This document shows positions 245 to 54,795 of a stretch of 54,795 nucleotides of DNA, piece by piece (the stretch's first letter is position 1; the number at the start of each line of letters is the position of its first letter). Made by a program: the position numbers and the translations under genes. The stretch is from a virus. The stretch lies in IMG/VR virus record IMGVR_UViG_3300045988_094320; one strand, given 5' to 3'. Below the pieces are notes generated by a model, which worked only from the letters and a program-made list of their open reading frames with translations, did no database searches and was not told the origin of the DNA.

Positions 245-290
245 ACCGAAAGGTCTTATTTTTTTATAAAAAATTAAGGAGGTATACAAC

Positions 291-767: not shown

Positions 768-861
768 ATAGCCAGTCGGAAATGAGTAATAGCAAGGCTG
801 TGCTGACTGGTTATGATGAAGAAACAGCCGAGCCAGAGATTGATAAGTATTAAATAGTAAA

Positions 862-887
862 GGGCGGTCTACGGACTGCCCCTTTCC
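862..887 (+). terminator. Hairpin terminator/attenuator after the major tail gene
   Basis: GGGCGGTC-tacg-GACTGCCC (8 bp, one G:T) followed by a T-rich ctttcc tract. Confidence 0.5.
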
Positions 888-925
888 TATGTGAAAAACA
901 TAGGGGGAAAGGAAAAGGTAACAAA

Positions 926-1279: not shown

Positions 1280-1668
1280 GAGATTTGCTTGAAAAAGAAG
1301 TATTTCCGCAGGCGTATGTAATGGGTGTTACGTGGGAACAGTTTTGGAAACTAAACCCACGTAAACTTGATTCTATTTTTGCCGGATACAAAGCCAAGCT
1401 AAAAGAAGATGATTATAAGAACTGGCTAAACGGTATTTATACGCAATCGGCTGTTTTTGTTTCGATAGACATAGCACTGAATGGCAGAAAATCTAAGAGC
1501 AAATATCTAAAACGACCGATTCTTGAAGAAATGGAAAATCAGCAAAATATGTCAGAGGAAGAAATGCAAAAGCAAAGAGAATTGTTTGTTGCAAAACTCT
1601 TGGCAATGCAAGCAAATTTCAATATAAATCATAGGGAGAAATCCAAAAATGAGCAAGAAAGTAATTGA
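1189..1668 (+). CDS. gpT-like -1 frame extension of the tail chaperone (fusion 926..1189 + 1189..1668)
   Basis: The track ORF 1285..1668 frame is -1 relative to 926..1279 and is open back to 1174. This is the classic G/GT arrangement upstream of a tape measure. Confidence 0.6.
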   Translation, partial: SRSQQDNGNGKCREYVGAGKRREKRKKQKLRDLLEKEVFPQAYVMGVTWEQFWKLNPRKLDSIFAGYKAKLKEDDYKNWLNGIYTQSAVFVSIDIALNGRKSKSKYLKRPILEEMENQQNMSEEEMQKQRELFVAKLLAMQANFNINHREKSKNEQESN

Positions 1669-2512: not shown

Positions 2513-2525
2513 CAACAAAATTTAG

Positions 2526-2556
2526 AGCGGTGTGGATTTCCATGCCGCTTTTTTTA
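2526..2556 (+). terminator. Intrinsic terminator between the lysin and the tape measure
   Basis: AGCGG-13 nt loop-(G)CCGCT followed by TTTTTTT. Confidence 0.6.
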
Positions 2557-2579
2557 ATTTACGGAAAGTTGGTGGAAGT

Positions 2580-5900: not shown

Positions 5901-5925
5901 TAGATTTTTCCCCTTGTGATATGAT
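5897..5925 (+). promoter_or_regulatory. Sigma70-type promoter with extended -10 for the moron gene
   Basis: TTGATA (5897-5902), 17-nt spacer, TG-a-TATGAT (5917-5925). It overlaps the tape-measure stop codon. Confidence 0.5.
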
Positions 5926-5946
5926 AAGAAAAAAATCACAAGGGGG
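5909..5946 (+). promoter_or_regulatory. 12-bp hairpin that sequesters the moron Shine-Dalgarno sequence
   Basis: TCCCCTTGTGAT (5909-5920) pairs perfectly with ATCACAAGGGGA (5935-5946). The 3' arm contains the SD AAGGGGGA, 8 nt before ATG 5955. Confidence 0.6.
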
Positions 5947-5954
5947 ATATAAAT

Positions 5955-6746
5955 ATGGCACTTATTACTTGCCCGGAATGCGGGAAAGAAGTATCAGACA
6001 AGGCGGCTACTTGCCCTAACTGTGGTTGCCCTTTGCAACAGTCACAACAGACAATTCAAGTCGAGGAATGGAAACCGCAGAAACCAAAGAAAATGAAGAA
6101 CAGTACATTGAGTACATGGGCGGCTGTATTAGCGTTTTTCACGTTTACAAGCCCTATTGGTTTTATTGTAGCCATAGTAGACTTAGCAAAAAAGGATAAA
6201 GAACACAAGCATACAGGTTCCTATTTTGCAATTATATTTTTTGCCTGTATTGTTTTGATGGTATCCTGCCCGAACAAGGACGATGAACCACAGAAAGTAG
6301 GAAGTGTTGAAACAAGTCAGCCTGCTACAACAGATACAAATACTTCTGCGGAATCTGCAAAAAGTAACATATTCCATGTAGGGGATGTGGTTGAAACAGA
6401 AGATTTCAGAATCACATATCTTGAATCGCAGGAATATACAAGCGACAACGAATTTTTACAGCCAAAAGACGGATACAAATACTGGAAATTCACATTTAAG
6501 TTTGAAAACATTTCAAACGATGTGAAGAATGTATCGAGTATAATGGATTGGGAATGTTATGCAGATAATTCAAAGGTAGATCAGACATATCTTGAAATGG
6601 ATAATGGTCTTGACGGTCAGTTATCCGCAGGACGTGAAACACAAGGCTCTTTGTTTTTTGAAGTACCGAACGATGTTCAGAATTTGGAACTTGAATATGC
6701 AATCAGCTATTATGGAAATGACAGAATAGTATTTGTCTCACAATAA
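5955..6746 (+). CDS. Membrane protein with an N-terminal zinc ribbon, TM segments and a C-terminal DUF4352-like beta domain (moron; candidate exclusion or surface protein)
   Basis: CPECG..CPNCGCP is followed by two hydrophobic stretches, and the C-terminus FRITYLE...YWKFTFKFENIS...GSLFFEVP resembles DUF4352. The gene is insulated by its own promoter and terminator between the tape measure and the distal tail gene. Confidence 0.6.
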   Translation: MALITCPECGKEVSDKAATCPNCGCPLQQSQQTIQVEEWKPQKPKKMKNSTLSTWAAVLAFFTFTSPIGFIVAIVDLAKKDKEHKHTGSYFAIIFFACIVLMVSCPNKDDEPQKVGSVETSQPATTDTNTSAESAKSNIFHVGDVVETEDFRITYLESQEYTSDNEFLQPKDGYKYWKFTFKFENISNDVKNVSSIMDWECYADNSKVDQTYLEMDNGLDGQLSAGRETQGSLFFEVPNDVQNLELEYAISYYGNDRIVFVSQ

Positions 6747-6760
6747 ATTGAATAACTTTT

Positions 6761-6790
6761 AAAGGCAGTCGAAATAGGCTGCCTTTTTTA
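6761..6790 (+). terminator. Strong intrinsic terminator after the moron
   Basis: AAAGGCAG-10 nt loop-CTGCCTTT followed by a T run. Confidence 0.8.
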
Positions 6791-6878
6791 TTTCAAAAAA
6801 TAATTCGGTGTTGAATTGGCATCTATCAGAAATGGTAGGTGCTTTTTTAATGCCTATTTTTTAAACAGGAGATTTACG

Positions 6879-7283
6879 ATGGCATACGCTGGATACCTTA
6901 TCAGAGTTGGAAATTATACAATCCCAAAGAAATACATGAGGGCAGAAAAATACGACGTAGTTCTTCACGGACAAGACTTGGATTCGTACCGTGACGCTAA
7001 CGGTCAGCTACAGCGTACAGCCTTGCAGCATACGGTTGTTGATGTAACTTTCTCTACTCCGCCTATGATGCATGAAGTGGTATGGAGAAACCTCATAGAC
7101 AGCATTAGAGCGCAGTATACGAACTCTATTGAGAAGAAGTGCACTGCATCGGTTTACGTGCCGGAAATAGGCGATTACAAGGTGCAGGACGTATATCTTC
7201 CTGATATCAAGACCAATATATACTATGCGGACGATCACGACATTATATACAACGAAATCGAACTGCAATTTATCGGGTATTAA
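6879..7283 (+). CDS. Small distal-tail (Dit-like) component
   Basis: 134 aa from ATG 6879 (RBS CAGGAG). It is the first gene after the tape measure/moron. Assigned by synteny only. Confidence 0.5.
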   Translation: MAYAGYLIRVGNYTIPKKYMRAEKYDVVLHGQDLDSYRDANGQLQRTALQHTVVDVTFSTPPMMHEVVWRNLIDSIRAQYTNSIEKKCTASVYVPEIGDYKVQDVYLPDIKTNIYYADDHDIIYNEIELQFIGY

Positions 7284-7295
7284 GAGGTAGTAATT

Positions 7296-8990
7296 ATGCT
7301 GAATGTGACAGAAAAGACAAAACTGGCATTTTTGCAGAGTAGCAGCCACAAAGAATTGAGTATAACATTCCCGGATCACGACTTGATTGTTGGAAATGCT
7401 AACATTGTTCAAGAGAGCATGGAACTGGAAGAAAGCATTATGTCCGGGAACGATCTTGAATTTATCGGCTGCGAAAGTAGCAGATTTTCTATAGATTTAT
7501 CCGGCACATTGATTGATATAGACGGTGTACCAGTAACCAAGGATTTAACCGGCACCGATATATCTGTTTCTATTAAGGCAAGCGGATCCGAAGAAAGCGT
7601 ACCGCTATTTGTCGGAACCGTAGTTGAGTATGACGGAAAAAGTAATACGCGCAAGAAAACAATCACTGCATATGATGCCTTGTATTGGCTGGGAGATTCA
7701 GTCAAAGGGGAAGTAGACTGGACGGACTACAATACTCTCAAATTTCCTATCACGATAAAGAAATTCAGAAACTGGCTTTTTGGAAAAGTGGGGATTGAGC
7801 AGGAAACCGTTGCACTTCCGGCAGATGATATAGAGACAAGAGGTCTTGACGATTATGTTTACAGTCAGACGAGAAAGTACCAGCGTGGAGAACTGTGTAA
7901 ATATCACGGAAAAGTATATGCAAGAAAGGTATATACCAAACAGAAAGAAATTAGCTTTGAATCTGCAAAGTGGTATCAGCCGGCAGAATATGACAGCACA
8001 AGAGTATACAAATACGGAACGGTGATTACTAAAAACGATGCATTTTATCTGTGCAACAAAGATTTTTCTTCGGCTAAAGAGTATTCAGAGGAAGATTGGT
8101 CGGAAATCGAATTTGAAACGGAATACAGCGACGAAAACACGACATACCTTGACCTTATTAAACTTGTATGTCAGTTAAATTGCGTATGGGGCAGGATCAA
8201 TCGCTATGGAAAGTTTACATATACTTTCCCTACACAGCTGACAGAAGATGATTCTTTTTATCCAGGAGCAGAATCTTTTCTACCAATGTATCCTACCACT
8301 GGTATTGATGATTCTACTGGCACTGATTCGGCAAGTAATTCCGTTCACTATGCGCACTACAAGGAAGCGACATACGAGACATACAAGATAAAACCGCTGA
8401 ACAGGTTCATTGTTCGTGATTCTTCTAAGGATAAAGCTAAAGGAAATGTAGGAACTGGAAAGCGGAAATATATAGTGCAAGGAAACCAGCTGTTATTTGG
8501 TCTTGACAGAATATGGAAAACACAGCTTGCAACGCTTCTAATGGATCAAAATGAGGGTTTCACTTACCAGCCGTTTGAAGCCACGACAATGGGACTTCCA
8601 TATATAGAGTGCGGAGACGTAGCAATGTTTTATGTCTACGATTTCATCAATTCGGCGCAGCAGCAGAAAGATATTTGGGTAGAAATGTCCTTTATTATTT
8701 TGCATAGAAAACTGACTGGCATTCAGCAGCTTATGGATGAGCTGTCTGCAACCGGCGAAAAAGGAAACACGCATATATCCGGCAGTGAAGCGCAAGTGAA
8801 TCAAAACTACACAAACACACAGATTCAGAAATTACAGACCAGCCAAAGCTACACTGAATCAAATGTTGAAAATCTGAATGAGCAGGTGGAACAGTTACAG
8901 GCAAGCGGATTGAAAGTAGAATCGGTCACAGCACTTCCGGCAAGCCCGGATGCAAACACAATCTATCTGATTCAGGGAACGGCAGGTTGA
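7296..8990 (+). CDS. Tail-associated hub / minor structural protein (Tal-like)
   Basis: 564 aa in the second position after the tape measure, with a C-terminal coiled-coil-like segment (NLNEQVEQLQASG). Confidence 0.6.
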   Translation: MLNVTEKTKLAFLQSSSHKELSITFPDHDLIVGNANIVQESMELEESIMSGNDLEFIGCESSRFSIDLSGTLIDIDGVPVTKDLTGTDISVSIKASGSEESVPLFVGTVVEYDGKSNTRKKTITAYDALYWLGDSVKGEVDWTDYNTLKFPITIKKFRNWLFGKVGIEQETVALPADDIETRGLDDYVYSQTRKYQRGELCKYHGKVYARKVYTKQKEISFESAKWYQPAEYDSTRVYKYGTVITKNDAFYLCNKDFSSAKEYSEEDWSEIEFETEYSDENTTYLDLIKLVCQLNCVWGRINRYGKFTYTFPTQLTEDDSFYPGAESFLPMYPTTGIDDSTGTDSASNSVHYAHYKEATYETYKIKPLNRFIVRDSSKDKAKGNVGTGKRKYIVQGNQLLFGLDRIWKTQLATLLMDQNEGFTYQPFEATTMGLPYIECGDVAMFYVYDFINSAQQQKDIWVEMSFIILHRKLTGIQQLMDELSATGEKGNTHISGSEAQVNQNYTNTQIQKLQTSQSYTESNVENLNEQVEQLQASGLKVESVTALPASPDANTIYLIQGTAG

Positions 8991-8994
8991 TGAA

Positions 8995-10347
8995 ATGGCA
9001 AGAAAACAATCAAGTACGATATGGTACCAAGGAAATCCACATAAAGAGATATATTTTCAAGGTCATTACCACGACAAGATGTATAAGGGAAGTCAGCTTG
9101 TGTGGGAAAAACTGGATAATGAATATGCCCCAAATAAATTGTACAGAATATATGATTATGCTACTTGGGATAACAAAACATATTGTATCGTTGCGATGTA
9201 TGATTTCAATCCGTCTACCAAAGAGCAAACTTTTGAAGATGTATATATAGCCAAATTTAACAGCGAAAAAATGTGCCTTGACTTGACTTTAAAAGGATTT
9301 TTGACAAGCGATAATTATGATAACTATTATTTGCACGCTTGCAAAGACGGAATTGTTCTAATCGAATGGGATAGCAAATTTTCAAGCACCAATACTGAAA
9401 ACGAACCTGTAATGAGAATTGCAGATTATCCGCTAAGTAAAAATTCTGTATTTAGAAAAATTGAACAGGGAACATTTACAGAGGATACTACAATCTTTGT
9501 TCCAGCTCATACAAGAAAGGATAAATCGACTGGAACACACTATTATGCCCCACAATATGTATTATTTTCTTCTGATTATTATATAAAGCAAACAATAACA
9601 TCTGAAAATCAAGCGGTTATAACCAAATATAACTATGCAAACGAAGTAATTAAGCAATCAACACCTACTGACTATGCAGTAGAAGGCGCAAGGCAATCAA
9701 GAGTAAGAAATGTATTTGAATTGTCAGGAAATAAATATGTAAGTTACGTGACAACATATAATAGCATCAATACATCGATGGAAAATATACGAGGTCTTCT
9801 TGTAGACAAAGAAATATCATCAAAGGTGCAACAAGTGATTGAAGCTACGAGCGATGCTTATTATCAAATAATCAACACAAGCAATATGGGTCTTACTAAA
9901 ATGTGCCAAAAAAGAGTAATGGCGAGATACAAAGATGGCGTAATTTTCTCAGCATTTATATATCCAAAAACCGGAACCGGATCAATGTATGTTACGATCA
10001 GAAATTATATAGGAAAAGTAGACGGCATATCTATGGTAAATACAGATATATCACCTCATTGTTTCGTTACTTCTAAAAACTCTATTATAATGGTTCATTA
10101 CAACGGCAAAATTGCAGATGTATATGAAATAAAAGAAAATGAAATAAAGAAATTTAGCACAGGAATATCTCTGGGAGTTTCATACACGAGCAGAGAAATA
10201 TGGATAGCAGAAGATGAAAATAATTATTATGTAATATCTGATGGATATTACGCGGATTCAAACTATTATGGCTTGATATATGCATTCGACAAAGAAACTT
10301 TAGAATTTAACGGAACTCGTCAAAATATGAAATATAGGTATATCTAA
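8995..10347 (+). CDS. Tail tip/baseplate structural protein, function unknown
   Basis: 450 aa, beta-rich and Tyr/Asn-rich, lying between the hub and fibre genes. Confidence 0.45.
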   Translation: MARKQSSTIWYQGNPHKEIYFQGHYHDKMYKGSQLVWEKLDNEYAPNKLYRIYDYATWDNKTYCIVAMYDFNPSTKEQTFEDVYIAKFNSEKMCLDLTLKGFLTSDNYDNYYLHACKDGIVLIEWDSKFSSTNTENEPVMRIADYPLSKNSVFRKIEQGTFTEDTTIFVPAHTRKDKSTGTHYYAPQYVLFSSDYYIKQTITSENQAVITKYNYANEVIKQSTPTDYAVEGARQSRVRNVFELSGNKYVSYVTTYNSINTSMENIRGLLVDKEISSKVQQVIEATSDAYYQIINTSNMGLTKMCQKRVMARYKDGVIFSAFIYPKTGTGSMYVTIRNYIGKVDGISMVNTDISPHCFVTSKNSIIMVHYNGKIADVYEIKENEIKKFSTGISLGVSYTSREIWIAEDENNYYVISDGYYADSNYYGLIYAFDKETLEFNGTRQNMKYRYI

Positions 10348-10358
10348 AGGAGATCATC

Positions 10359-12338
10359 ATGGCAAATTACACACCGACTTTTACAAAACCATACCCTAGC
10401 GGATGGGTAGATAAGCCGTCCAAGACGACGCCAGTCACAGCGGCAATAATGAACAGTTATGATACGGCTATTGCGGCACTGGAAGCATATCTTAGAGATA
10501 ATGCGATTGATACGGTTACCGTTAGCGTAGAGCAGTTTCCGTCAGACGGAAGGCAATGGCTTGGAACGATTACAGTTGGAAGCAACCAGTATAGAATCTA
10601 TATGCCATCGTTAAAATACGAAAATTCAGTTTCTGATGGCATTAAGATAGGAACTATCACTTTGGGGGAGCAGTCTTTTGATGTTTACGCCCCCACATCT
10701 TCCGCAGGCGGCAGTACCGTATCAGTAGTTCCCAAAACTCTTACTGGCACAAATATTGCAGAAATTACAGTAGACGGCACTACCTATCAGCTTTATGCAC
10801 CTACTGGCGGAAGCGGTAGCGGAAGCACCGTGACAGCAGAAGCTACGCTGACAGAGGGTACACAGATAGGCAAGATTACGATTGACGGAGTTGAAACAAT
10901 CCTTTATGCACCAAATGGCGGCGGCGGAAGCGTTACAGTAGATTCTGCTCTTTCTACAGAATCAGAGAACCCAGTGCAAAACAAAGTAGTAACCGCCGAA
11001 TTGAATAAAAAAATAGAAACACTTGACGATGAATCACAAGCACCCGATGTAGTCAATTTTGATTTAGATTCTGAACTTTCTCTAACTTCTGTCAAAGGTG
11101 TACAGAACAAAGCCATTGCAGAAGAATTTCAGAATTATGCAAACGGCACTAAAGTTGCAGCAAAAGCTAAAGAAGCAGAAACAGCAAAAACAGCTGCAAG
11201 TGCTACAACCGCACAATCAGCCACAACCGCTGAAAGTGCAACAAAAGCCACACGGGATGCGCAAGGAAATGTAATCGACACAACATATGCAAAAAAGACA
11301 GAAATTCCTCAAGGAGCCGTTGTTGATGATGCTTTATCTGCAAGTAGTACTAATCCGGTACAAAATAAAGTTGTAAAAGCTGAGTTTGACAAGATAAATA
11401 GTAATTTAACTGATTTGAAAATGCTTGGTTGGTCAGTACCAAAAGAATGCCCTGTGCAGAATGAAGCGAATAGTAATCAGTTTGTGCAGAAAGTCGGAAG
11501 AGTTGATTTAGGAAGTCAGGCTTGGACTTCAGTTAGTACAAATACTTCATTATATAGTACATCCATCAAAGATATAAAAACATTATCAAACAATATATTT
11601 TTACTTGGGTATTCTGTTACATCATATGATATTGAAACTTCAAAAATGACAAATAAAAATATAAAAATGTCCGGTTTAGATAAACAAGATTTTTATATTA
11701 AAAATGATTCATATACAGATTTGGATTCATTTAAAAAAGCAATGCAAGGTCAATATCTTTATTATGAACTTGCTACACCTATCACACGCACGATTGACGG
11801 AAATGAGGCTATTAGTCAGTTAAATTCCGATTTATCCAATATAAAAGACGGCACAACGCCTTCTGCGAAAGCTTTAGCTGACGAAGATGGGAATAATATA
11901 AAGAGTACCTATGCAAAGAAAACGGAAACATTCGAGATTGTAACTGAAGATGTTAATGTAGTTCTTAACTCCGATTTATTTGATTCTACCTATAGTGATA
12001 TTACCTGTATACGCATTGGAAAACTTTGTGTTCTAAGTTTTACCATACGTGTTCAAAATAATATATCTAGTACCATAGATAAGATTGTTTTAATGTCAAT
12101 AATAGGAACAAAATATCAACCGAAAAAATTAGGTGCTAGTACTAGTAGAAGACAAATCTTTCAGGGATTTGCTGTTGGTAATTATGACGAGAATGGAAAA
12201 CAATCAGAATCTCTCAATAATACGGTAAGAATTATTACAAGTTCGGATAGTAATTATACGCAAATTATTACAAGAGACAAAAATAGAATAAACTGGAGTG
12301 GTTATGTGCAAGGTCAAATAATGTGGGTAACTGATTAA
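10359..12338 (+). CDS. Tail fibre / receptor-binding protein with internal repeats
   Basis: 659 aa with four modules of about 45 aa ending in Y(A/M)P. It has duplicated ALS..S.NPVQNKVV.AE motifs, an Ala/Thr-rich linker and a divergent C-terminal domain. Confidence 0.7.
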   Translation: MANYTPTFTKPYPSGWVDKPSKTTPVTAAIMNSYDTAIAALEAYLRDNAIDTVTVSVEQFPSDGRQWLGTITVGSNQYRIYMPSLKYENSVSDGIKIGTITLGEQSFDVYAPTSSAGGSTVSVVPKTLTGTNIAEITVDGTTYQLYAPTGGSGSGSTVTAEATLTEGTQIGKITIDGVETILYAPNGGGGSVTVDSALSTESENPVQNKVVTAELNKKIETLDDESQAPDVVNFDLDSELSLTSVKGVQNKAIAEEFQNYANGTKVAAKAKEAETAKTAASATTAQSATTAESATKATRDAQGNVIDTTYAKKTEIPQGAVVDDALSASSTNPVQNKVVKAEFDKINSNLTDLKMLGWSVPKECPVQNEANSNQFVQKVGRVDLGSQAWTSVSTNTSLYSTSIKDIKTLSNNIFLLGYSVTSYDIETSKMTNKNIKMSGLDKQDFYIKNDSYTDLDSFKKAMQGQYLYYELATPITRTIDGNEAISQLNSDLSNIKDGTTPSAKALADEDGNNIKSTYAKKTETFEIVTEDVNVVLNSDLFDSTYSDITCIRIGKLCVLSFTIRVQNNISSTIDKIVLMSIIGTKYQPKKLGASTSRRQIFQGFAVGNYDENGKQSESLNNTVRIITSSDSNYTQIITRDKNRINWSGYVQGQIMWVTD

Positions 12339-29332: not shown

Positions 29333-29361
29333 GGTTGTCCGGACATAAAACCTAGGTTTCC
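29333..29361. promoter_or_regulatory. Bipartite double palindrome, copy A (TGTCCGGACA + AAACCTAGGTTT)
   Basis: 10-mer at 29336-29345 and perfect 12-mer palindrome at 29348-29359, about 16 nt upstream of ATG 29378. Confidence 0.7.
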
Positions 29362-31554: not shown

Positions 31555-31585
31555 GGTTTGTCCGGACAAATAAAGCTAGCTTTAC
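31555..31585. promoter_or_regulatory. Bipartite double palindrome, copy B (TGTCCGGACA + AAAGCTAGCTTT)
   Basis: 10-mer at 31559-31568 and perfect 12-mer palindrome at 31572-31583, about 12 nt upstream of ATG 31598. Confidence 0.7.
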
Positions 31586-32456: not shown

Positions 32457-32855
32457 ATGAGGTTATCAGAACTGACTAAGCCAGAGATTGATGCAATCGT
32501 CGGAAATGCTAATTTTACGGAAGAAGAATATCAAGTGTTCCAGTATTTATCTAAAGGTGTAACACTTGATGAAATGGTTTATAGGTTAAAGCTATCGAAA
32601 GCTACTATTTCAAGAATTGTATTCAAGGTCAAAATGAAAATAGAAAGGATTGATAAAATGAAGCAAAATATACCTGTATGGGAAAAAATCACAATGACAG
32701 TAGAAGAAGCTGCAGAATATAGCAGCATTGGCATAAACAAAATCAGAGAGCTTTCAAGCGATCCCAGATGTAATTTTGTTATCTATATAGGCAAAAAGCG
32801 GTTAATAAAGCGAAAAGAGTTTGAAAAGTTCATTGCTGATAATGTGGAGTTGTAG
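32457..32855 (+). CDS. Fusion of a sigma-70 region-4-like HTH and an excisionase-type HTH (Xis-like)
   Basis: N-terminus FTEEEYQVFQYLSKGVTLDEMVYRLKLSKATISRIVFKVKMKI. C-terminus MTVEEAAEYSSIGINKIRELSSD...KKRLIKRKEFEKFI. It lies immediately upstream of int. An internal ATG at 32658 has an AAAGGA RBS. Confidence 0.6.
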   Translation: MRLSELTKPEIDAIVGNANFTEEEYQVFQYLSKGVTLDEMVYRLKLSKATISRIVFKVKMKIERIDKMKQNIPVWEKITMTVEEAAEYSSIGINKIRELSSDPRCNFVIYIGKKRLIKRKEFEKFIADNVEL

Positions 32856-32926: not shown

Positions 32927-34057
32927 ATGGGAAAAGACCTAAGAGGTAAGGAAATAGGGCAGGGTTTGTCCCAAAGGAAAGATGGGTACTATGTCGCTAG
33001 GTATACTGACAGGTACGGAAAGCGCATACAAAAACTGTTCTTGAAAATGAGAGAAGCCCAAAAATGGCTTTCAGAAAATAAGTATGAGGAGCAACACTCA
33101 AATATAGACTTTCCATCGGACATGATTGTTGAATCGTGGTTCCAATACTGGATTGCAATAAAAGAGAAAACAGTAAGACCGAATACCGTCAGAAATTACA
33201 GAGAGCGTTATAACAGGAATATAAAGCCGATAATAGGGAATAAATTATTAAGAGATGTAAACAGTATTCATTGTCAGCAAATATTTAACAAAATGGATGA
33301 TGAAGGATACAGGAAATCGACAATATATCAGACAAGAATCGCATTATACAATATGCTGCAATATGCATTTGACAACGATGTAATAAGAAAAAATCCATGT
33401 ACGAGGTCTGTTATATCTGATATGGGAAAAGAATCCGCGAAGAAAGAAGCACTCACAATAGAAACACAGAAAAAATTCTTGGAGTATGCTTCCGGTATGT
33501 CTTATGAATATCAATATAGATTTATTCTACAGACTGGATTGAGAACCGGGGAGCTTGCAGGTTTAAAGTGGGAAGATATAGACTTTAAAGGCAGAACACT
33601 TACGGTCAGCAGAAGTTTGGAGTATAGACATTCAGCAGGTGAATGGAGAGAGGGGCAGCCGAAGAGTAAATCCGGGTACAGGACTATACCCCTGACAGAT
33701 GAAGCAATTTATATCCTAAATAAGCAAAAAGAGAAAAATGCGCATCTGAAATTTGTCGAAATGCAATGGAAAGACAGAATATTTTTGTGCAAAACCGGAG
33801 CACCTGTTAAGAACAGCACATATGACACGGCGTTATTTAAAATATGCGACAAGGCAAAAATTCCTAGATTCTCAATGCATGTATTGCGTCATACATTCGC
33901 TACGAGATGTATAGAAGCCGGAATGATGCCGAAAACTCTTCAAACGATTTTAGGACATTCAAATATCGGAATAACTATGAATCTTTACGTGCACACAACA
34001 GACGACCAGAAGAAAATAGAAATTGAAAAAGTGGCAAAAGCACTAAAAGTTGTGTAA
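32927..34057 (+). CDS. int: Tyrosine integrase
   Basis: 376 aa with ..GLRTGELAGLKWEDIDF.. and HVLRHTFATRCIEAGMMPKTLQTILGHSNIGITMNLYVH (R..HxxR..Y catalytic signature). Confidence 0.95.
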   Translation: MGKDLRGKEIGQGLSQRKDGYYVARYTDRYGKRIQKLFLKMREAQKWLSENKYEEQHSNIDFPSDMIVESWFQYWIAIKEKTVRPNTVRNYRERYNRNIKPIIGNKLLRDVNSIHCQQIFNKMDDEGYRKSTIYQTRIALYNMLQYAFDNDVIRKNPCTRSVISDMGKESAKKEALTIETQKKFLEYASGMSYEYQYRFILQTGLRTGELAGLKWEDIDFKGRTLTVSRSLEYRHSAGEWREGQPKSKSGYRTIPLTDEAIYILNKQKEKNAHLKFVEMQWKDRIFLCKTGAPVKNSTYDTALFKICDKAKIPRFSMHVLRHTFATRCIEAGMMPKTLQTILGHSNIGITMNLYVHTTDDQKKIEIEKVAKALKVV

Positions 34058-34353: not shown

Positions 34354-34381
34354 AAGAATGTGAGAACCACATTCTTTTTTT
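34354..34381 (+). terminator. Strong intrinsic terminator downstream of attP
   Basis: AAGAATGTG-agaac-CACATTCTT followed by TTTTT. Confidence 0.8.
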
Positions 34382-34416: not shown

Positions 34417-34578
34417 ATGTTTTCGGACACAGTTTTAGAAAAGATATTTGCAATGCCGGATATGCAGATGCTTGATCTTCAAACACAATCAAACATTGTG
34501 CACGGCATTGAGACAATACTGGAAAAAGAGGAAAAGAAGAATGCTGATGAATTTCAGTCAGATGGGAACGCCGAATAA
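34417..34578 (+). CDS. Small hypothetical protein
   Basis: 53 aa from ATG 34417 (RBS TAAGGAG). The track ORF start at 34360 lies inside the terminator. Confidence 0.35.
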   Translation: MFSDTVLEKIFAMPDMQMLDLQTQSNIVHGIETILEKEEKKNADEFQSDGNAE

Positions 34579-34649
34579 AGATGTATTTTTGACACAGGAT
34601 GAAACAAATATATTGGTCGAAGCTGAAAAAGCGGAAAGAGAGGAACATT

Positions 34650-35120
34650 ATGCAGCCTTACCCAAATCCAAATTACTACCAGAACTATATGCAGCCGCCG
34701 CAGCAGATTTATAGTCAGCCGGCAGTACAGCAGTACCAGCAACCTTCATATATGCAGCAGGCAGCGCAAAGAATAAACGGAAGAGTGGTGCAGTCCGCAG
34801 ATATGATTACCGCAAACGATGTCCCGATGGATGGATCGGTTGCGTTCTTTCCCACACAAGATCTGTCAGAGATATACGCAAAGAGTTGGGATGCGAATGG
34901 CAAAATCGTTACAAGGCTTTTTAAGCCTGTTTCAGATTCACACCCTTCCAATCCCACACAAGAAACAGAAAAATTGAAAATAGGGCTATCAGACGAAGCC
35001 ACAGAGGTATTCAACAAGCACTTTGATACACTGTTTTTCAAAATAGAAGAACTGGAAAAGAAAATTGACGAGAAATCTTTGACTAAGACTAATGCAAGAA
35101 CAAAAGTTAGTCAAGATTAG
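34650..35120 (+). CDS. Protein with a Q/P/Y-rich N-terminus and a conserved-looking beta domain
   Basis: 156 aa from ATG 34650 (RBS GAGAGGAA). The first 40 residues contain 13 Q, 7 P and 7 Y, followed by INGRVVQSADMITANDVPMDGSVAFFPTQDLSEIYAKSWDANGKIVTRLFKPV. Confidence 0.55.
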   Translation: MQPYPNPNYYQNYMQPPQQIYSQPAVQQYQQPSYMQQAAQRINGRVVQSADMITANDVPMDGSVAFFPTQDLSEIYAKSWDANGKIVTRLFKPVSDSHPSNPTQETEKLKIGLSDEATEVFNKHFDTLFFKIEELEKKIDEKSLTKTNARTKVSQD

Positions 35121-35154
35121 TCCAAGTTTAGTCTAAAAATAGGATGGTGGCTTT

Positions 35155-35385
35155 ATGATGAATCAAGGAATTATACAGGCAATAAATAAATTAAAGACAA
35201 TCAGGAACCCACAACAGGCAGCCATGCAGGCATTGCAGAATGCAGCAAGGCAAGGAAATCAAATGGCAAGCGGAATTTTGCAGAATATCCAGTCTGGAAA
35301 CATGGCAGGCGTAGAGCAGACACTTAATAATTTTATGGGTGAAAATGGAATCAGTATGAATGATATAAGTCAAATGTTTAGATAA
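35155..35385 (+). CDS. Small Q/N-rich helical protein
   Basis: 76 aa track ORF. Confidence 0.45.
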   Translation: MMNQGIIQAINKLKTIRNPQQAAMQALQNAARQGNQMASGILQNIQSGNMAGVEQTLNNFMGENGISMNDISQMFR

Positions 35386-35398
35386 ATAGTACATATTA

Positions 35399-35434
35399 GG
35401 GTTTTGTCCGGACAGAGTAAAAACCAAGGTTCCC
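35399..35434. promoter_or_regulatory. Bipartite double palindrome, copy C (TGTCCGGACA + AAACCAAGGTT)
   Basis: 10-mer at 35405-35414 and imperfect second palindrome at 35421-35431, 33 nt upstream of ATG 35468. Confidence 0.65.
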
Positions 35435-35467
35435 TATTTGTAAATAAACAAATGGAGGTAAACTAAT

Positions 35468-36238
35468 ATGTTTAGTAACGGAGTAAGCCTTGCTGACATT
35501 GCGGCAGTAACGGGCAACAACAGAGACAATGATGGTATGTGGGGCAATGGCGCATGGTGGATTGTCATTCTCTTAATTTTCGGGTGGGGAGGCTTCGGCA
35601 ATAATGGCTGGGGCGGTAACGGTGCCGGAAATGGTTATACAGATGCGGCAATTCAGAGAGGTTTTGACAATCAGGCTGTTATCAGCAAACTTGACGGTAT
35701 CACAAACGGTCTGTGTGATGGATTCTATGCTGTAAACAACAGTATGCTTACAGGTTTCAACGGAATCAACACCAATATCATGCAGACAGGCTATGGCATC
35801 CAGCAGGCAATCAACGCTGACACAATCGCGAATATGCAGAACACAAATGCATTGCAGGCGCAGCTTGCAAACTGTTGCTGCGAAACTCGTGAAGCTATTC
35901 AGGGTGTAAACTACAACATGGCAACCAACACTTGCGCATTACAGAACACCATGAACAGCAACACAAGAGATATCATCGACAGCCAGCAGGCAGGAACGAG
36001 AGCGATTCTCGACTATCTGTGTCAGGATAAGATCGCAACATTACAGGCTGAGAACAGCGATCTCAGACAAGCTGCATCACAGGATAGACAGAATGCACTT
36101 CTGACTACTGCAATGACAGCGCAGACACAGCAGATCATCAATTCTGTAAACCCACCGGCAATCCCAGCATATGTTGTTCCTAACCCAAACACATATGTGC
36201 CATACGGATGCGGATGCAATCAGAGTTGCGGATGCTAA
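35468..36238 (+). CDS. Membrane-anchored N/Q/G/W-rich protein with a Cys-rich C-terminus
   Basis: 256 aa with RBS GGAGGT. A TM segment (WWIVILLIFGW) is flanked by GNG/WGG repeats. There is a long N/Q/T/A-rich region with a CCC motif, and the protein ends YGCGCNQSCGC. Confidence 0.6.
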   Translation: MFSNGVSLADIAAVTGNNRDNDGMWGNGAWWIVILLIFGWGGFGNNGWGGNGAGNGYTDAAIQRGFDNQAVISKLDGITNGLCDGFYAVNNSMLTGFNGINTNIMQTGYGIQQAINADTIANMQNTNALQAQLANCCCETREAIQGVNYNMATNTCALQNTMNSNTRDIIDSQQAGTRAILDYLCQDKIATLQAENSDLRQAASQDRQNALLTTAMTAQTQQIINSVNPPAIPAYVVPNPNTYVPYGCGCNQSCGC

Positions 36239-36354
36239 TTACAACAGAATAATTGAGTATCTTAATTAAGTTTAACTCGTTTTCAACAGGTTAAAAATGG
36301 TTTTAACGAATTAAAACATGATTATGTCTGCAAAAGCAGTATTACTTGTAAACC

Positions 36355-36390
36355 AAGGGGCAGACTGAAATATGTTTGCCCTTATTTTTT
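36355..36390 (+). terminator. Intrinsic terminator
   Basis: AAGGGGCA-loop-TGCCCTT followed by ATTTTTT. Confidence 0.6.
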
Positions 36391-36409
36391 GAAAGAGAGG
36401 TAAATAAAT

Positions 36410-36832
36410 ATGGCAGAATTTACAGGAATTGCATTACAAACAGTTGCCGCAGGAGAAGATGTTGCTTTTACAGAAACACCAGTATGTGGTAGCAAGTGCA
36501 TTGTTCATAGACAGGGAAGCGGTATTGTCAAGTTAAGAGGTATTACAAACCAGTGTAGAGCAAGATTTCTTGTATCGTTTAGTGGAAATATTCAGATACC
36601 AACAGGCGGTACGGTTGGAGCTATCTCACTTGCACTTGCGGTAGATGGCGAGCCTTTGCAATCAACACGAATGATCGTAACACCGGCGGCAGTAGAAAAT
36701 TTCTTTAACGTATCAGCACAGGCATACGTTGATGTACCTTGTGGTTGTTGCAGTACAGTATCTGTGCAGAACACATCTACACAGACTATTGAGGTTCAGA
36801 ACAGTAATTTGATTGCGATAAGGGAGGCTTAA
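36410..36832 (+). CDS. Small beta-rich protein resembling the BclA C-terminal / C1q-TNF-like domain
   Basis: 140 aa. The pattern ..QTVAAGEDVAF..GSGIVKL..FLVSFSGN...GAISLALAVDGEPL....VSAQAYVDVP..STVSVQN...IEVQNSNLIAIRE matches my memory of exosporium BclA-C-type domains. No collagen repeat. Confidence 0.5.
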   Translation: MAEFTGIALQTVAAGEDVAFTETPVCGSKCIVHRQGSGIVKLRGITNQCRARFLVSFSGNIQIPTGGTVGAISLALAVDGEPLQSTRMIVTPAAVENFFNVSAQAYVDVPCGCCSTVSVQNTSTQTIEVQNSNLIAIREA

Positions 36833-36836
36833 TATT

Positions 36837-37466
36837 ATGCACAAATGGGCTAAACAGATAATGGAATGCGTCAAGGCTAAGGTTGACGGAATTGGAATTG
36901 ACAATTTTGAAGGGCAAAATCTTGACGATTTAAAGGATTTTACAGAAATAGCGAAGAACATAGCTTGTTTTGACAAGGATTACAGAATCGTTGAAGCTAT
37001 GGAAAAGTCAGAAGATAATGAGGATATTATGCGTATGCTCGAACAGTACGAAGATTATCCGGAACGCAGATTTTACGACCATTACAGATATGCCGATGGC
37101 AGATTTGCACCAAAAGGTCGCGGAACATACCGCAGAGGTTATGAAGAGCCGCCGTACTGGCACATGACACCAGAGCGTTATCACGACATGGAATACAGCC
37201 GTGATATGGATAGGGGAAATGGTCGTATGTACTATACGGAGCCTACGCACACAGAAAGCCGGTATGAAAGCGCAAAGAGGGCTTACACAGAATCAAAGGA
37301 ACTGCACAAAGGAAATGAGCCGCAGGACAAAGAAGCAAAAATGCGCGAACTGGAAAAGTACATGAAAGAAATGTCAGATGATCTGCTGAATCTGATGAAA
37401 GGAATGTCACAGGAAGAAATGAATATGGCAAAGTCCAAATTATCAGTCCTTGTCAGCAAAATGTAA
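36837..37466 (+). CDS. Tyr/Arg/Glu-rich protein, unknown function
   Basis: 209 aa with a central low-complexity region RRFYDHYRYADGRFAPKGRGTYRRGYEEPPYWHMTPERYHDMEYSRDMDRGNGRMYY. Confidence 0.55.
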   Translation: MHKWAKQIMECVKAKVDGIGIDNFEGQNLDDLKDFTEIAKNIACFDKDYRIVEAMEKSEDNEDIMRMLEQYEDYPERRFYDHYRYADGRFAPKGRGTYRRGYEEPPYWHMTPERYHDMEYSRDMDRGNGRMYYTEPTHTESRYESAKRAYTESKELHKGNEPQDKEAKMRELEKYMKEMSDDLLNLMKGMSQEEMNMAKSKLSVLVSKM

Positions 37467-37470
37467 AAAC

Positions 37471-37503
37471 AAAGGCTATGGGTGCAATGCTCATAGCCTT
37501 TTT
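37471..37503 (+). terminator. Intrinsic terminator
   Basis: AAAGGCTATG-11 nt-CATAGCCTTT followed by TT. The RBS AGGAG of the next gene follows directly. Confidence 0.75.
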
Positions 37504-37516
37504 AGGAGTTGATTAT

Positions 37517-37843
37517 ATGATATTTACAGTAAATGGAAATAACTGGATACTGCAATATGTAAGACCTAGCAGCGAAGAACTGCGCAGGTCAGACGGCGTA
37601 TACACTCTCGGCGTTACCGACAATACAACCAAAACGGTAACGATTGCGGATAACCTGTCAGATCGAATGACAGACAAGGTACTATGCCATGAGTTGACGC
37701 ACGTTTACAGCTTCGAGAATGGCTGCCACATGGATATGCACACAGAAGAGATAGTTGCGGATTTTCTATCTCTGTATGGTCGAGATATCGTGTACATGGC
37801 TGATGATCTGATGAAGATTTTCCCAAGAAAAGTTGCGTACTAA
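37517..37843 (+). CDS. ImmA/IrrE-like or SprT-like zinc metalloprotease (HExxH)
   Basis: 108 aa from ATG 37517, with ..TVTIADNLSDRMTDKVLCHELTHV.. Confidence 0.55.
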   Translation: MIFTVNGNNWILQYVRPSSEELRRSDGVYTLGVTDNTTKTVTIADNLSDRMTDKVLCHELTHVYSFENGCHMDMHTEEIVADFLSLYGRDIVYMADDLMKIFPRKVAY

Positions 37844-38459: not shown

Positions 38460-38654
38460 CTATTGTTCGATGATTTCAAAGCATTTTTGTATTTCTTCCA
38501 GACTGTGACAGCATTCCCCGCCTGGATAACGATATATAGCCATATAATCGCCACAGCCTAAAGGTTGTATATCTTTCAAATATGCTCTATATCCTCCGTT
38601 CCCTTTTATAATCTTTGGGTATCCGTCTTTCCTCATTTTTTCAATTATTGTCAT
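38460..38654 (-). CDS. Small Cys-containing protein (64 aa)
   Basis: ATG 38654 with RBS GGAGGAA at 7 nt. It is the last gene of the leftward operon and is followed by a hairpin at 38441-38461. Confidence 0.5.
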   Translation of the reverse strand: MTIIEKMRKDGYPKIIKGNGGYRAYLKDIQPLGCGDYMAIYRYPGGECCHSLEEIQKCFEIIEQ

Positions 38655-38744
38655 GCTCTTTTTCCTCCATATTCTAATTTTATCCCAGTTACCCGGGTAA
38701 AAGCAAGCCGGGGAATCGAACCCCGGAAGCACCGACCTTGCTAA

Positions 38745-39077
38745 TTATTTGCTTGCTAAAATCTCCCTTGCTAATAAATCCCAGTAAAGGCTATCGCCGC
38801 GCTTGTCAAGCCACTTTTCGGCTTCTTCTGTGCTTTCGTCTAACCATTCAGCCATAAGCTGGATAATATCATAATAACTATAATCAACGCCAACGCCCAA
38901 ACCTCTCAGCCATTCTATGCAGGCGTTACGCTCTCCAAGTCTTGCAATCGCCCAACCGTATTCACTTACAAACTTTTCCTTAATGTCCTTAATTGTGATA
39001 AGCTCTTCACTCTGTGCAACCTCTGCCAAATAATTTCTAACCGCTACTTTAACTTCCTTGCTGTTTGTTCTTCTCAT
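38745..39077 (-). CDS. Acidic helical protein (110 aa), unknown function
   Basis: Track ORF; Trp/Glu-rich C-terminal half. Confidence 0.55.
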   Translation of the reverse strand: MRRTNSKEVKVAVRNYLAEVAQSEELITIKDIKEKFVSEYGWAIARLGERNACIEWLRGLGVGVDYSYYDIIQLMAEWLDESTEEAEKWLDKRGDSLYWDLLAREILASK

Positions 39078-39105
39078 TTCTTTTTACCTGTGCTATAATA
39101 TAGCT

Positions 39106-39168
39106 ACCTTTCTTTTTTTGATTGGTGGCGGCTTGTGCTTGGTAGGCGTGCCGCCTTTTTTCTTTTTT
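39106..39168 (+). ncRNA. Candidate cis-antisense sRNA of about 60 nt
   Basis: A perfect extended -10, TGCTATAAT (39091-39099), lies about 27 nt upstream of hairpin GGCGGC (39127-32)/GCCGCC (39150-55), which is followed by TTTTTTCTTTTTT. It is antisense to the intercistronic leader of the minus-strand operon. Confidence 0.4.
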
Positions 39169-39233
39169 GGTCTGCCATCATCAGCACCGGGAGACCGTCC
39201 CGCGGTGGACGCTCCAAGGTCGGAGCGTTTCGG

Positions 39234-39386
39234 CTAAATCATGTTAATTGCTTCGGCGTTTAGTTCTATGCATTTCTGGTTGCATCTTTCGATTGATCCA
39301 GTAAAAACGATCTTGCCTGATCCGTTTATTTCTTCAACAACGCAATAACCGAAATAATCGTTATAAGATACATAATATTTTGGCAT
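39234..39386 (-). CDS. Small protein (50 aa), not in the track
   Basis: MPKYYVSYNDYFGYCVVEEINGSGKIVFTGSIERCNQKCIELNAEAINMI, with RBS GGAGCTGGGAAG. Confidence 0.4.
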   Translation of the reverse strand: MPKYYVSYNDYFGYCVVEEINGSGKIVFTGSIERCNQKCIELNAEAINMI

Positions 39387-39401
39387 CTTCCCAGCTCCTT
39401 T

Positions 39402-39515
39402 CTATTTCTCAATCAGCTTAATATCCTGATCGGATTCAATCGCTGTTACTTCTGATCTTGTAAATTCCTCTGATCCTACATACATACCGTTTACATAAAT
39501 TCTATAAGTTTTCAT
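39402..39515 (-). CDS. Small protein (37 aa)
   Basis: MKTYRIYVNGMYVGSEEFTRSEVTAIESDQDIKLIEK, with RBS AAAGGAAG. It is the internal start of track ORF 39402..39776. Confidence 0.35.
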   Translation of the reverse strand: MKTYRIYVNGMYVGSEEFTRSEVTAIESDQDIKLIEK

Positions 39516-39577
39516 TTGCTTTTCTTCCTTTCGTTTGGCGCTTGGTTTTTCTTTTGATAGCTTTATTATAACAGATA

Positions 39578-39717
39578 TAAGGCACAAAACAAGTCGGAAT
39601 ATTATACAAATATAAGGCACAAAACAATTATTCTTTTGTGCAATGTGTATAAGGCACAAATATATTGAGACACTTATATATAGAAGAAAAATAAAACCTT
39701 GACATATAAGGCACAAA
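39578..39717. promoter_or_regulatory. Four direct TAAGGCACAAA boxes in the divergent promoter region
   Basis: Boxes at 39578, 39613, 39650 and 39707. The last sits between TTGACA (39699) and TATTAT (39722) of the RHH gene promoter. On the other strand the boxes overlap two TATAAT-containing leftward promoters. Confidence 0.7.
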
Positions 39718-39759
39718 GCAGTATTATATCTATATAATATTAAAAGGAGGTTGTGAGAT

Positions 39760-39954
39760 ATGAACGAAGAACACAAGACAAGCGAAGCACAAAGAAAAGC
39801 TATATATAATTATGATAGCAAATTTGAGCGGATCAATTGCAGATTCCAAGCAGGCACAAAAGACAGAATCAAGGCATTGAAATATTCGGCGAATGACTTT
39901 ATAAAATTGGCGGTTGCCGAAAAGCTGGAGCGCGAAGAAAAAATATTGAAATAA
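39760..39954 (+). CDS. Ribbon-helix-helix (CopG/Arc-like) DNA-binding protein
   Basis: 64 aa with RBS AAAGGAGG. ERINCRFQAGTKDRIKALKYSANDFIKLAVAEKLERE fits the beta-strand plus two helices RHH pattern. Confidence 0.5.
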   Translation: MNEEHKTSEAQRKAIYNYDSKFERINCRFQAGTKDRIKALKYSANDFIKLAVAEKLEREEKILK

Positions 39955-54513: not shown

Positions 54514-54795
54514 TTTATGGGTTTTTGACAATGAAACAAGGATAATCAGTAACCTTAACTCTTTTGCTATCCCTGTATTGAAGCAGAATTTTACAAACAT
54601 GAAATTCCAAAAGGGAATCACGATTACAAATTTGAAAAGCAGACTGGCAGGAACGATATTTCCGACCATATACGTGCACGAAATGAGCGGCACGGAAAAA
54701 GGGCAGACTATTGACGGTCAGGAAATCAATGCTGTAACAGCTACATATCAAGTAGATGTGATTGTCAACACACAGCAGTCAGACGCAAAAAAAAT
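54500..54795 (+). CDS. Tail-completion / head-tail joining protein, N-terminal part (continues at nt 100 after the circular junction, ending at 244)
   Basis: GTG 54500 lies 6 nt after AAGGAGG (54487-93). The frame stays open to the window end and is in phase with 2..244. Confidence 0.6.
   Translation, partial: MEIDNLWVFDNETRIISNLNSFAIPVLKQNFTNMKFQKGITITNLKSRLAGTIFPTIYVHEMSGTEKGQTIDGQEINAVTATYQVDVIVNTQQSDAKK
54697..54795. repeat. Terminal direct repeat, identical to 1..99
   Basis: Exact 99-nt identity with the window start. Confidence 0.95.

Follow-up and report, generated by a model that had tools for sequence, protein, structure and literature searches.

A conserved accessory gene module of gut Clostridia phages that pairs a membrane protein with a stand-alone BclA_C-fold protein

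IMG/VR record IMGVR_UViG_3300045988_094320 is a viral DNA of 54,795 nucleotides (hereafter the window, meaning the whole stretch that was analysed). Downstream of its integrase gene lies a block of genes at 34417–37843, all on the plus strand and subdivided by three terminator-like hairpins. An original prediction, made from the sequence, had read most of this block (34417–37466) as cargo of lysogenic conversion, a phage-borne cassette that remodels the spore or cell surface. Our analysis identifies the block as one copy of an accessory module, conserved and mobile, that is carried by tailed phages of gut Clostridia, mainly of Lachnospiraceae, Oscillospiraceae and Ruminococcus-type hosts; its role most probably lies in the infection cycle of the phage itself. 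The literature on BclA-like proteins in phages and on sporulation genes in gut phages, as searched here, gave no description of it. The block and its upstream flank carry the following features.

34354–34376, plus strand: terminator-like hairpin with T-run, 9-bp stem (found by scan), located after the attP-like region and ahead of the first module gene
34417–34578, plus strand: acidic open reading frame (ORF) of 53 residues, ribosome-binding site (RBS) AAGGAG, first gene of the block in this lineage
34650–35120, plus strand: Q/P/Y-rich protein, phrog_21718, 156 residues, counted from ATG 34650 (the ORF opens at 34599)
35155–35385, plus strand: Q/N/M-rich helical protein, 76 residues
35405–35414, no strand assigned: TGTCCGGACA palindrome, 63 nt 5' of the membrane-protein gene
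35468–36238, plus strand: membrane protein, phrog_16490, 256 residues
36356–36383, plus strand: terminator-like hairpin (found by scan), in the 171 nt that separate the membrane-protein gene from the BclA_C-fold gene
36410–36832, plus strand: stand-alone protein of predicted BclA_C/C1q/TNF fold, phrog_20016, 140 residues
36837–37466, plus strand: Y/R-rich protein, 209 residues
37472–37503, plus strand: terminator-like hairpin AAGGCTATG/CATAGCCTT with T-run, 9-bp stem (37472–37500) and 11-nt loop (read from the sequence)
37517–37843, plus strand: HExxH metallopeptidase-like protein, 108 residues, counted from ATG 37517 (the ORF opens at 37478)

Terminators had been predicted at 36355 and 37471, and hairpins are indeed present at both sites; the second was overlooked by our scan because its 11-nt loop lies beyond the scan's loop limit. 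The hairpin at 34354–34376 would insulate the module from read-through, either from the integrase gene or from host DNA in a lysogen. We consider 34650, not the ORF start, the probable beginning of the Q/P/Y gene. The HExxH gene probably starts at 37517, since the upstream ATG falls inside the hairpin, homologues begin MVFTING, and an RBS (AGGAG) is in place.

The four proteins singled out in the original prediction are as compositionally extreme as it described. When the 72 plus-strand ORFs of the window were ranked by their best 40-residue windows, proteins of the block came first for Q/P/Y (0.68, median 0.20), G/N/W (0.65, median 0.22) and Y/R content (0.38, median 0.15). Q, P or Y account for 27 of the first 40 residues of the Q/P/Y protein, whose low-complexity N-terminus is joined by a conserved beta domain of about 50 residues (INGRVVQS...SEIYAKSWDANG) and a C-terminal coiled-coil, K-rich tail. 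The Y/R protein carries 14 Y and 13 R in the 80 residues from 71 to 150, within a disordered Tyr/Arg/Gly/Asp core that lies between helical acidic N-terminal and K/E-rich C-terminal parts. The further claim of GerQ-like and spore-coat-like character did not extend beyond composition: with GerQ, CotC/CotU, ExsY/CotY and Ena the proteins share a Q-rich N-terminus, a Tyr-rich core and vicinal cysteines, a likeness to known coat proteins that is not one of homology. Pfam and NCBIfam gave no match to the GerQ (PF09671), coat, exosporium-leader or Ena families for the Q/P/Y and Y/R proteins or for 142 diverse module proteins.

Recurrence, gene order and genomic position

The 140-residue and 256-residue proteins of the block each have more than 7,900 homologues in a large protein collection. 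A genome scan restricted to one genome per species yielded 56 loci, and synteny was counted over 62 loci, including phage records. Most loci lie in Lachnospiraceae, Oscillospiraceae, Ruminococcus, Acutalibacter and related genomes; the few in bins labelled Bacilli, Mollicutes or Bacteroidota may be binning errors. In Lachnospiraceae and Oscillospiraceae phages the module recurs as five to seven genes on one strand, in the order Cys-His-Asp protein, Q/P/Y protein, Q-rich protein of about 76 residues, membrane protein, BclA_C-fold protein, Y/R/S/D/G-rich protein and a protein of about 110 residues. Its core runs from the Q/P/Y protein through the helical Q-rich protein, the single-pass membrane protein and the small Cys-containing beta protein to the disordered Y/R-rich protein. 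The module is among the commoner unannotated gene sets of these phages, whose hosts dominate the human gut, and every one of its proteins but one is without a Pfam family.

The slots differ in how far they are conserved. The module is usually opened by the Cys-His-Asp family (phrog_3754, about 125 residues; 24 loci, for example L001:7074–7451), which is absent from the window; homologues of the 53-residue ORF that opens the window's block (40–62% identity) hold the same position in 10 loci. Two sequence types of the Q/P/Y family are related (hhalign probability 94%). The 76-residue slot is filled in most loci by a protein of similar size and composition, homology between its two sequence types not being demonstrable by hhalign. 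Positional equivalents of the Y/R protein, with YSRDGYSRD-type cores, occur in 39 loci (hhalign probability between the two types 52%). The seventh slot holds one of two proteins of about 110 residues that hhalign found to be unrelated: the HExxH type, with weak matches to DUF6782, SprT and M78 and to the peptidase families phrog_1233 and phrog_13742, follows the module in the window's lineage only (16 loci), and the other protein takes its place elsewhere.

The module occurs at three kinds of genomic position. At the first, it comes after tail genes, an endolysin gene (CHAP, or Amidase_3 with PG_binding_1) and a holin gene, and is followed by a reverse-strand integrase gene and a helix-turn-helix (HTH) repressor gene or by host mnmE; this arrangement was found in many Oscillospiraceae-type prophages, Dulem virus 33 and bajarodcaudo virus 5. 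At the second, within the head region, its neighbours are Phage_min_cap2 on one side and the scaffold and major-capsid genes on the other; this holds for seven mouse Lachnospiraceae prophages (L011–L016 and L028) and for Dulem virus 35, where the integrase gene is about 17 kb away. At the third, it follows the integrase gene and attP, as in the window, Dulem virus 39 and L003–L010. In Dulem virus 36 it stands directly after the receptor-binding protein gene. Adjacency to holin and endolysin genes is thus seen in many loci, and not in the window or the head-region loci. The predicted location at a prophage edge holds for prophages L003–L006, in which the module abuts host pur, Fe-hydrogenase and FHA genes, and a place at the edge or beside the attachment site is also usual in Oscillospiraceae-type loci. 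It fails for the head-region loci; a prophage-edge position is not a property of the module.

Foreign genes were observed within the module in some loci. In L012–L016 the spacer that separates the membrane-protein gene from the BclA_C-fold gene is a hot spot of insertion, and the gene found there encodes a DNA methyltransferase, a radical SAM protein or a PAPS-reductase-like protein (examples are L014:6825–7940, L016:6979–7941 and L012:7226–7939). In Dulem virus 33 a reverse-strand endonuclease gene lies just 5' of the membrane-protein gene.

The positions bear on the possibility that the products are virion-associated, a trimer of the BclA_C-fold protein, perhaps with the low-complexity proteins, decorating the capsid or tipping a fibre, and the membrane-like protein being a packaged or ejected protein or an assembly factor. 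The module is always co-oriented with late genes and adjoins or lies inside them, it sits between minor capsid and scaffold or major capsid protein genes in eight loci and behind a receptor-binding protein gene in Dulem virus 36, its non-membrane products lack a hydrophobic N-terminus, as virion proteins would, and a phage observed only in lytic growth carries it too. However, the module moves among phages with different structural gene sets, lies mostly beyond the lysis cassette and is split by internal terminators. The head-region location is also weakened as evidence for a structural role because the same region carries the methyltransferase, radical SAM and PAPS-reductase-like genes, which are non-structural cargo. 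No module protein has a structural PHROG annotation, and tailed-phage virions do not typically contain either a true hydrophobic transmembrane helix or low-complexity proteins of the Q/N/Y/R kind.

The membrane protein and its BclA_C-fold partner

An AlphaFold2 model of the 140-residue protein, computed as a single chain from an alignment of 26 close relatives, is confidently all-beta (predicted local distance difference test, pLDDT, 87.6; predicted template modelling score, pTM, 0.83). The best Foldseek match in the PDB was 9h38, the C-terminal domain of F-BclA from the tip of F-ENA spore appendages (E-value 1e-7, template modelling score, TM, 0.73). It was followed by ExsFA, ExsF and BxpB, by BclA, and then by TNF-family ligands (EDA, 4-1BBL) and C1QL2, the exosporium proteins as a group matching with E-values of 1e-7 to 5e-6 and TM of 0.67–0.75. 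The suggestion that the 36410 product recalls the TNF/C1q-like C-terminal domain of BclA was therefore a good one, and the TNF-like jelly roll expected of it is what the model and the structural matches point to.

Sequence comparison leads to the same family by a longer route. The window protein itself has no Pfam match, including to the BclA_C model, even at E<=1, and PDB searches with this family, by single sequence and by profile, returned nothing significant. When 67 diverse relatives were scanned singly, seven matched BclA_C (PF18573; best E-value 2.3e-10), which makes the homology of the 140-residue protein to BclA_C transitive. We take it to be a C1q/BclA-C protein by predicted fold and, transitively, by homology. 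An exhaustive search placed the family in 711 clusters at 50% identity; the best 150 of the 711 cluster representatives span 76–196 residues, are mostly of about 135–160 residues and include no long fusion proteins. A GCC motif is conserved in the family (PCGCCS in the window protein), and the 140-residue protein has no collagen-like GXX repeats, no exosporium leader and no TIGR03720-type NCBIfam match.

Each of the known relatives by fold differs from the block protein in architecture. The C-terminal domain of BclA and F-BclA has the same jelly roll and is sequence-detectably homologous to some relatives of the block protein, but it ends a long collagen-like stalk with an exosporium leader, whereas the block protein is stand-alone, without collagen repeats, phage-encoded, paired with a membrane protein and provided with the conserved GCC motif. 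ExsFA/BxpB (ExsF), the basal-layer protein of the exosporium that anchors BclA and F-Anchor, is of similar size, likewise stand-alone and of the same fold (TM about 0.72). It has no detectable sequence similarity to the block protein, NCBIfam finds no exosporium-leader motif in the block's neighbours, and ExsF acts in Bacillus sporulation while the module belongs to phages, including one of a non-spore-former. The block's BclA_C/C1q protein is a new variant: stand-alone, membrane-partnered and within a widespread, otherwise orphan phage module.

Fold is also the second line of evidence for a virion-associated role. Phage fibres and spikes commonly bear C1q/TNF-like knobs, Foldseek matched the phi812 spike knob and the A-1(L) short-fibre domain, and in the BFVD the best matches, which are stand-alone proteins of 130–143 residues from uncultured sipho-, podo- and myoviruses, are followed by collagen/C1q proteins. 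The block protein shares its fold class with these knobs and with the collagen-C1q proteins of giant viruses. The fibre and spike knobs, however, are C-terminal parts of long tail-module proteins, and the block protein has neither stalk nor anchor and is encoded outside the tail module; the best 150 cluster representatives are likewise all short, stand-alone and without an anchoring domain. Weighing both lines, we regard virion association as unlikely.

The 256-residue membrane protein has one hydrophobic helix (AWWIVILLIF) embedded in GNG/WGG runs. Its other parts are a short acidic N-tail, long N/Q/T-rich helices with a GLCD motif, a CCCE motif, a coiled coil, a Pro-rich P(I/V)PAYVVPNP segment and the ending YGCGCNQSCGC; throughout the family a conserved C-terminal P(I/V/T)PAYVV(P/Q)(N/P)P is followed by a Cys/Gly-rich tail. 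A PDB sequence search returned nothing significant. Over 35 family members the N-terminal flank of the helix averages 0.3 K/R and 2.3 D/E and the C-terminal flank 1.0 K/R, charges that weakly favour an N-out/C-in topology.

Since Gly/Trp-rich hydrophobic peptides and Cys-rich tails recall some bacteriocins, the membrane protein might be read as the toxin or immunity factor of a bacteriocin-like system, for which an accessory cassette with its own terminators would be a suitable setting. This had been offered as an alternative in the original prediction, and we give it very little credence: we found neither a leader peptide nor a transporter or modification enzyme, no bacteriocin family was matched, the protein is 256 residues long and mostly helical coiled coil, and a conserved five-gene synteny with a BclA_C-fold protein is unlike any bacteriocin locus.

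The membrane-protein gene lies directly 5' of the BclA_C-fold gene in 56 of the 62 loci. No upstream membrane-protein homologue was detected in the other six, several of which are short or start at the BclA_C match. A different Cys-rich protein of about 127–139 residues was observed in the partner slot of bajarodcaudo virus 5 (L066:7746–8165) and Dulem virus 36 (L067:4624–5007), with the motifs GFGCGGC, at the N-terminus, and ICICVAQ. It shows no relation to the BclA_C-fold family (hhalign probability 1.6%) and has no PDB sequence match; the membrane protein keeps its C-terminal tail in both phages.

Proposed role of the module

Searches of family databases offered little guide to function. 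Scans of all window proteins against Pfam, NCBIfam, PHROGs and PADLOC gave, for the block, only PHROGs of unknown function and the weak metallopeptidase matches; as the original prediction had held, the proteins are unlike phage housekeeping proteins, with no match to a housekeeping, virion or DNA-metabolism family. Scanning 142 diverse members of the membrane, Q/P/Y, Y/R, Cys-His-Asp and f8 families one by one against Pfam revealed no recurrent family. The Y/R protein has no family match, the Q/P/Y and Cys-His-Asp proteins have none in Pfam, and PDB sequence and profile searches with the latter two families gave nothing significant. The phrog_3754 family has invariant Asp-Cys, His and Asp positions, a pattern resembling the Cys-His-Asp triad typical of papain-like and transglutaminase-like enzymes, and, with genes for Q-rich proteins next to it, the family may act enzymatically in processing or cross-linking. 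Apart from the membrane protein, no module protein has a hydrophobic N-terminus or a transmembrane segment, which leaves surface display in a lysogen without an obvious export route.

Further evidence on the module's role comes from Butyrivibrio virus Ceridwen, the sole cultured phage that our searches of phage records found to carry it; the other phage records are uncultured gut phages. Downstream of its lysin gene Ceridwen encodes the Cys-His-Asp, Q/P/Y, small Q-rich, membrane, BclA_C-fold, Y/R and ~110-residue proteins, the membrane protein with 29% identity to that of the window (E-value 2e-16) and the BclA_C-fold protein with 43%. The part of the Ceridwen record that we examined holds no integrase. 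Its host is Butyrivibrio fibrisolvens, and Butyrivibrio is a non-spore-forming genus. The nearest cultured host of the window's own lineage is Lachnospira intestinalis (89% identity for the 140-residue protein), and the genus Lachnospira is described as non-spore-forming. Ceridwen has no annotated integrase or excisionase and has been observed only in lytic growth (PMC7372960).

These findings bear on lysogenic conversion, according to which the lysogen (or, for spores, the mother cell) would produce the proteins and these would remodel the coat, the exosporium or the cell surface. The closest solved structures are indeed those of the exosporium proteins F-BclA, ExsFA, BxpB and BclA, many Lachnospiraceae and Oscillospiraceae hosts are spore-formers, and assembly in the mother-cell cytoplasm, where coat proteins of comparable composition assemble, would suit proteins that have many Cys residues, are rich in Q, Y and R and carry no export signals. 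The block also has its own terminators and lies at the prophage edge in this lineage, and the module is integrase-adjacent in many others. Against this, what had been taken for lineage-specific conversion cargo proved to be a conserved module in thousands of phages that is not tied in position to attP, lies deep in the late operon and far from the attachment site in some of them, and is carried by Ceridwen. Homologous clusters do occur in Lachnospiraceae and Oscillospiraceae genomes and phages, and in this phage of Butyrivibrio. Ceridwen, the head-region site and the lack of hydrophobic N-terminal or transmembrane segments outside the membrane protein fit poorly with a role restricted to lysogens or spores. 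The Lachnospira host and the lack of matches to GerQ, coat, exosporium-leader or Ena families speak in the same direction, as does a survey of sporulation genes in gut phages that lists no coat or exosporium genes (PMC10294663). We consider conversion decidedly unlikely, and a conserved module of the phage cycle, as opposed to a spore-specific conversion cassette, quite probable.

A role in the phage cycle could also lie in protection or timing at the membrane, with a membrane-anchored complex exerting superinfection exclusion or controlling lysis timing. Such a function would be useful to temperate and lytic phages alike, and the module is carried by temperate phages and by one seen only in lytic growth; the core membrane protein has a conserved short N-tail that would be external in the proposed topology. 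The module directly follows holin and endolysin genes in most loci, and exclusion genes of Gram-positive phages often lie at the prophage edge, its position in this lineage. Temperate phages of Gram-positive hosts carry moron, conversion and exclusion genes in the interval from lysis cassette to attachment site, and the module resembles these in its position in most loci, as does the block in having terminators of its own. Unlike those genes, the block is a conserved multi-gene module that also occurs in the head region, far from lysis genes, and known exclusion proteins are single small genes, not modules of five to seven genes with low-complexity partners. Pfam and PADLOC matched no block protein to a known conversion, exclusion or defence family, PADLOC gave no match at E<=0.01 for any module protein, and neither these proteins nor the 142 diverse members matched holin, antiholin or spanin families in Pfam and PHROGs. 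Exclusion or lysis timing therefore strikes us as rather unlikely.

The explanation we favour as a whole, with a probability of roughly 0.45, is an accessory module of the phage cycle whose products would assemble into a complex anchored in the membrane and capped by a trimer of the BclA_C-fold protein. In the inserted membrane protein the short acidic N-tail would be external and the long, helical domain with its Cys residues cytoplasmic, and the other module proteins, having no hydrophobic N-terminal or transmembrane segment, would stay cytoplasmic; with this topology all parts would meet at the cytoplasmic face of the membrane. The BclA_C-fold protein would trimerise, as solved members of the fold do, and the trimer would dock on and cap the conserved Pro-rich, Cys-rich C-terminal tail of the membrane protein. 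We propose this docking by analogy with ExsF, which grips the Pro-rich exosporium-leader peptides of BclA and F-Anchor; in the crystal structure of ExsF with the Pro-rich F-Anchor leader the peptides lie in the clefts of the trimer (PMC12357932). The low-complexity partners would contribute a cross-linkable layer, and the assembly would serve the phage infection cycle instead of the lysogenic conversion of spores. The details of docking and of assembly at the cytoplasmic face are offered only tentatively and are doubtful even to us.

Several observations count against the favoured explanation. The internal terminators and the prophage-edge position in this lineage are also what would be expected of a moron expressed in the lysogen. 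The topology hangs on a small charge difference, the AlphaFold2 model of the membrane protein is helical but of low confidence (pLDDT 40.8), and many Cys residues are unusual for a cytoplasmic assembly. Identities within the gene pair are uncoupled (87% for the membrane protein and 61% for the BclA_C-fold protein in L024; about 40% and 83% in L011–L016), which indicates that the two genes recombine independently. Because a different small Cys-rich protein takes the partner slot in two phages, any interaction cannot rest on fine co-adaptation; strict co-evolution of the pair, which we had considered, was rejected on these two findings together. Finally, the assembly and its expression during infection are proposed from sequence and a structural model.

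A bolder version, which we think improbable, is that the phage builds its own coat-like, covalently cross-linkable protein layer during infection. Its parts would be the membrane anchor, a trimeric connector of BclA_C/ExsF type, building blocks rich in Q, Y, R and Cys and, in most phages, the Cys-His-Asp protein as a possible enzyme for their processing or cross-linking. Such a layer might serve to tether or enclose progeny virions, or act as armour for the infected cell. If so, spore-surface architecture has a counterpart in phages of gut Clostridia, or was borrowed by them, and a cross-linked assembly of this sort would be a new kind of phage-made structure. Should the module be a capsid decoration or an exclusion system instead, six or seven orphan families would gain a name. 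The pair of a membrane protein and a stand-alone BclA/ExsF-fold protein offers a concrete, testable handle on gut-virome dark matter, and experimental systems are at hand in Ceridwen and in cultured lysogens such as Lachnospira intestinalis CLA-AA-H89B and Lachnospiraceae and Acutalibacter isolates.

Genome context and further observations

The first and last 99 bases of the window are identical (1–99 and 54697–54795), from which we conclude that it represents a complete circular phage genome of about 54.7 kb. Outside the block we assigned the following features.

1–12338: long unannotated ORFs, taken as tail genes
about 15–32 kb: replication and recombination region with AAA ATPase, RecT, HNH endonuclease, DNA methylase and G39P-like loader (Pfam)
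32457–32855, plus strand: Tn916-type excisionase
32927–34057: tyrosine integrase
34060 and 34288: tandem 11-nt TTGGTACATAA repeats with an AT-rich stretch between them, directly 3' of the integrase gene
46084: terminase large subunit (Pfam)
48594: SPP1-type portal (Pfam)
51160: major capsid protein (Pfam)

The AT-rich stretch and the TTGGTACATAA repeats plausibly represent attP with arm-type sites. Downstream of the block, a small reverse-strand cluster (38460–39776) precedes the packaging genes.

The single TGTCCGGACA copy that had been noted in the block is exact, at 35405. Allowing up to one mismatch, the window contains four sites against 0.59 expected by chance, and three of them are exact (29336–29345, 31559–31568 and 35405–35414). 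The exact copies are all intergenic and stand just 5' of the genes for a DNA methylase (29378), a zinc-ribbon protein (31598) and the module membrane protein, in similar flanks (GGTT...AAA.C.AGG.TT); L003–L006 have TGTCCGGACA at the same position. We propose it as a candidate operator for a phage regulator. Type II restriction enzymes are known to recognise its core, TCCGGA, and a gene for an N6/N4 methylase is present in the phage.

The excisionase is a fusion, with a C-terminal Tn916-Xis domain (E-value 4e-23) and an N-terminal part weakly matching a GerE/LuxR or sigma-70 region-4-like HTH (E-value 0.002). In L003–L006, L008 and L028 there is instead a separate sigma-70 r3/r4-like gene of 155–164 residues, on the opposite strand just upstream of the module.

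Within the reverse-strand ORF 38460–38732, a hairpin (CCGGGGTTCGATTCCCCGG, 38708–38726, minus strand) fits the tRNA T-arm consensus. Neither ARAGORN nor Rfam called a tRNA there, and the hairpin may be the remnant of a tRNA gene.

A tRNA cluster lies just 5' of the terminase gene. To its first member (43228–43313, plus strand, 86 nt) ARAGORN assigned the anticodon UUA, with which the tRNA would decode UAA, a stop codon; Rfam confirmed it as a tRNA (41 bits). The long phage ORFs are intact under the standard code, so stop-codon recoding is not evident. The rest of the cluster (43535–43608, 43672–43735 and 44035–44119) comprises tRNA-Gln(UUG), tRNA-Ser(GCU) and a borderline fourth match, at 43672–43735.

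The reverse-strand cluster just 3' of the module contains a type II hammerhead ribozyme (39166–39235, minus strand; Rfam RF02276, 63.2 bits against a gathering score of 37, E-value 8e-11), and the DNA surrounding it is 88–94% identical in L002–L005.

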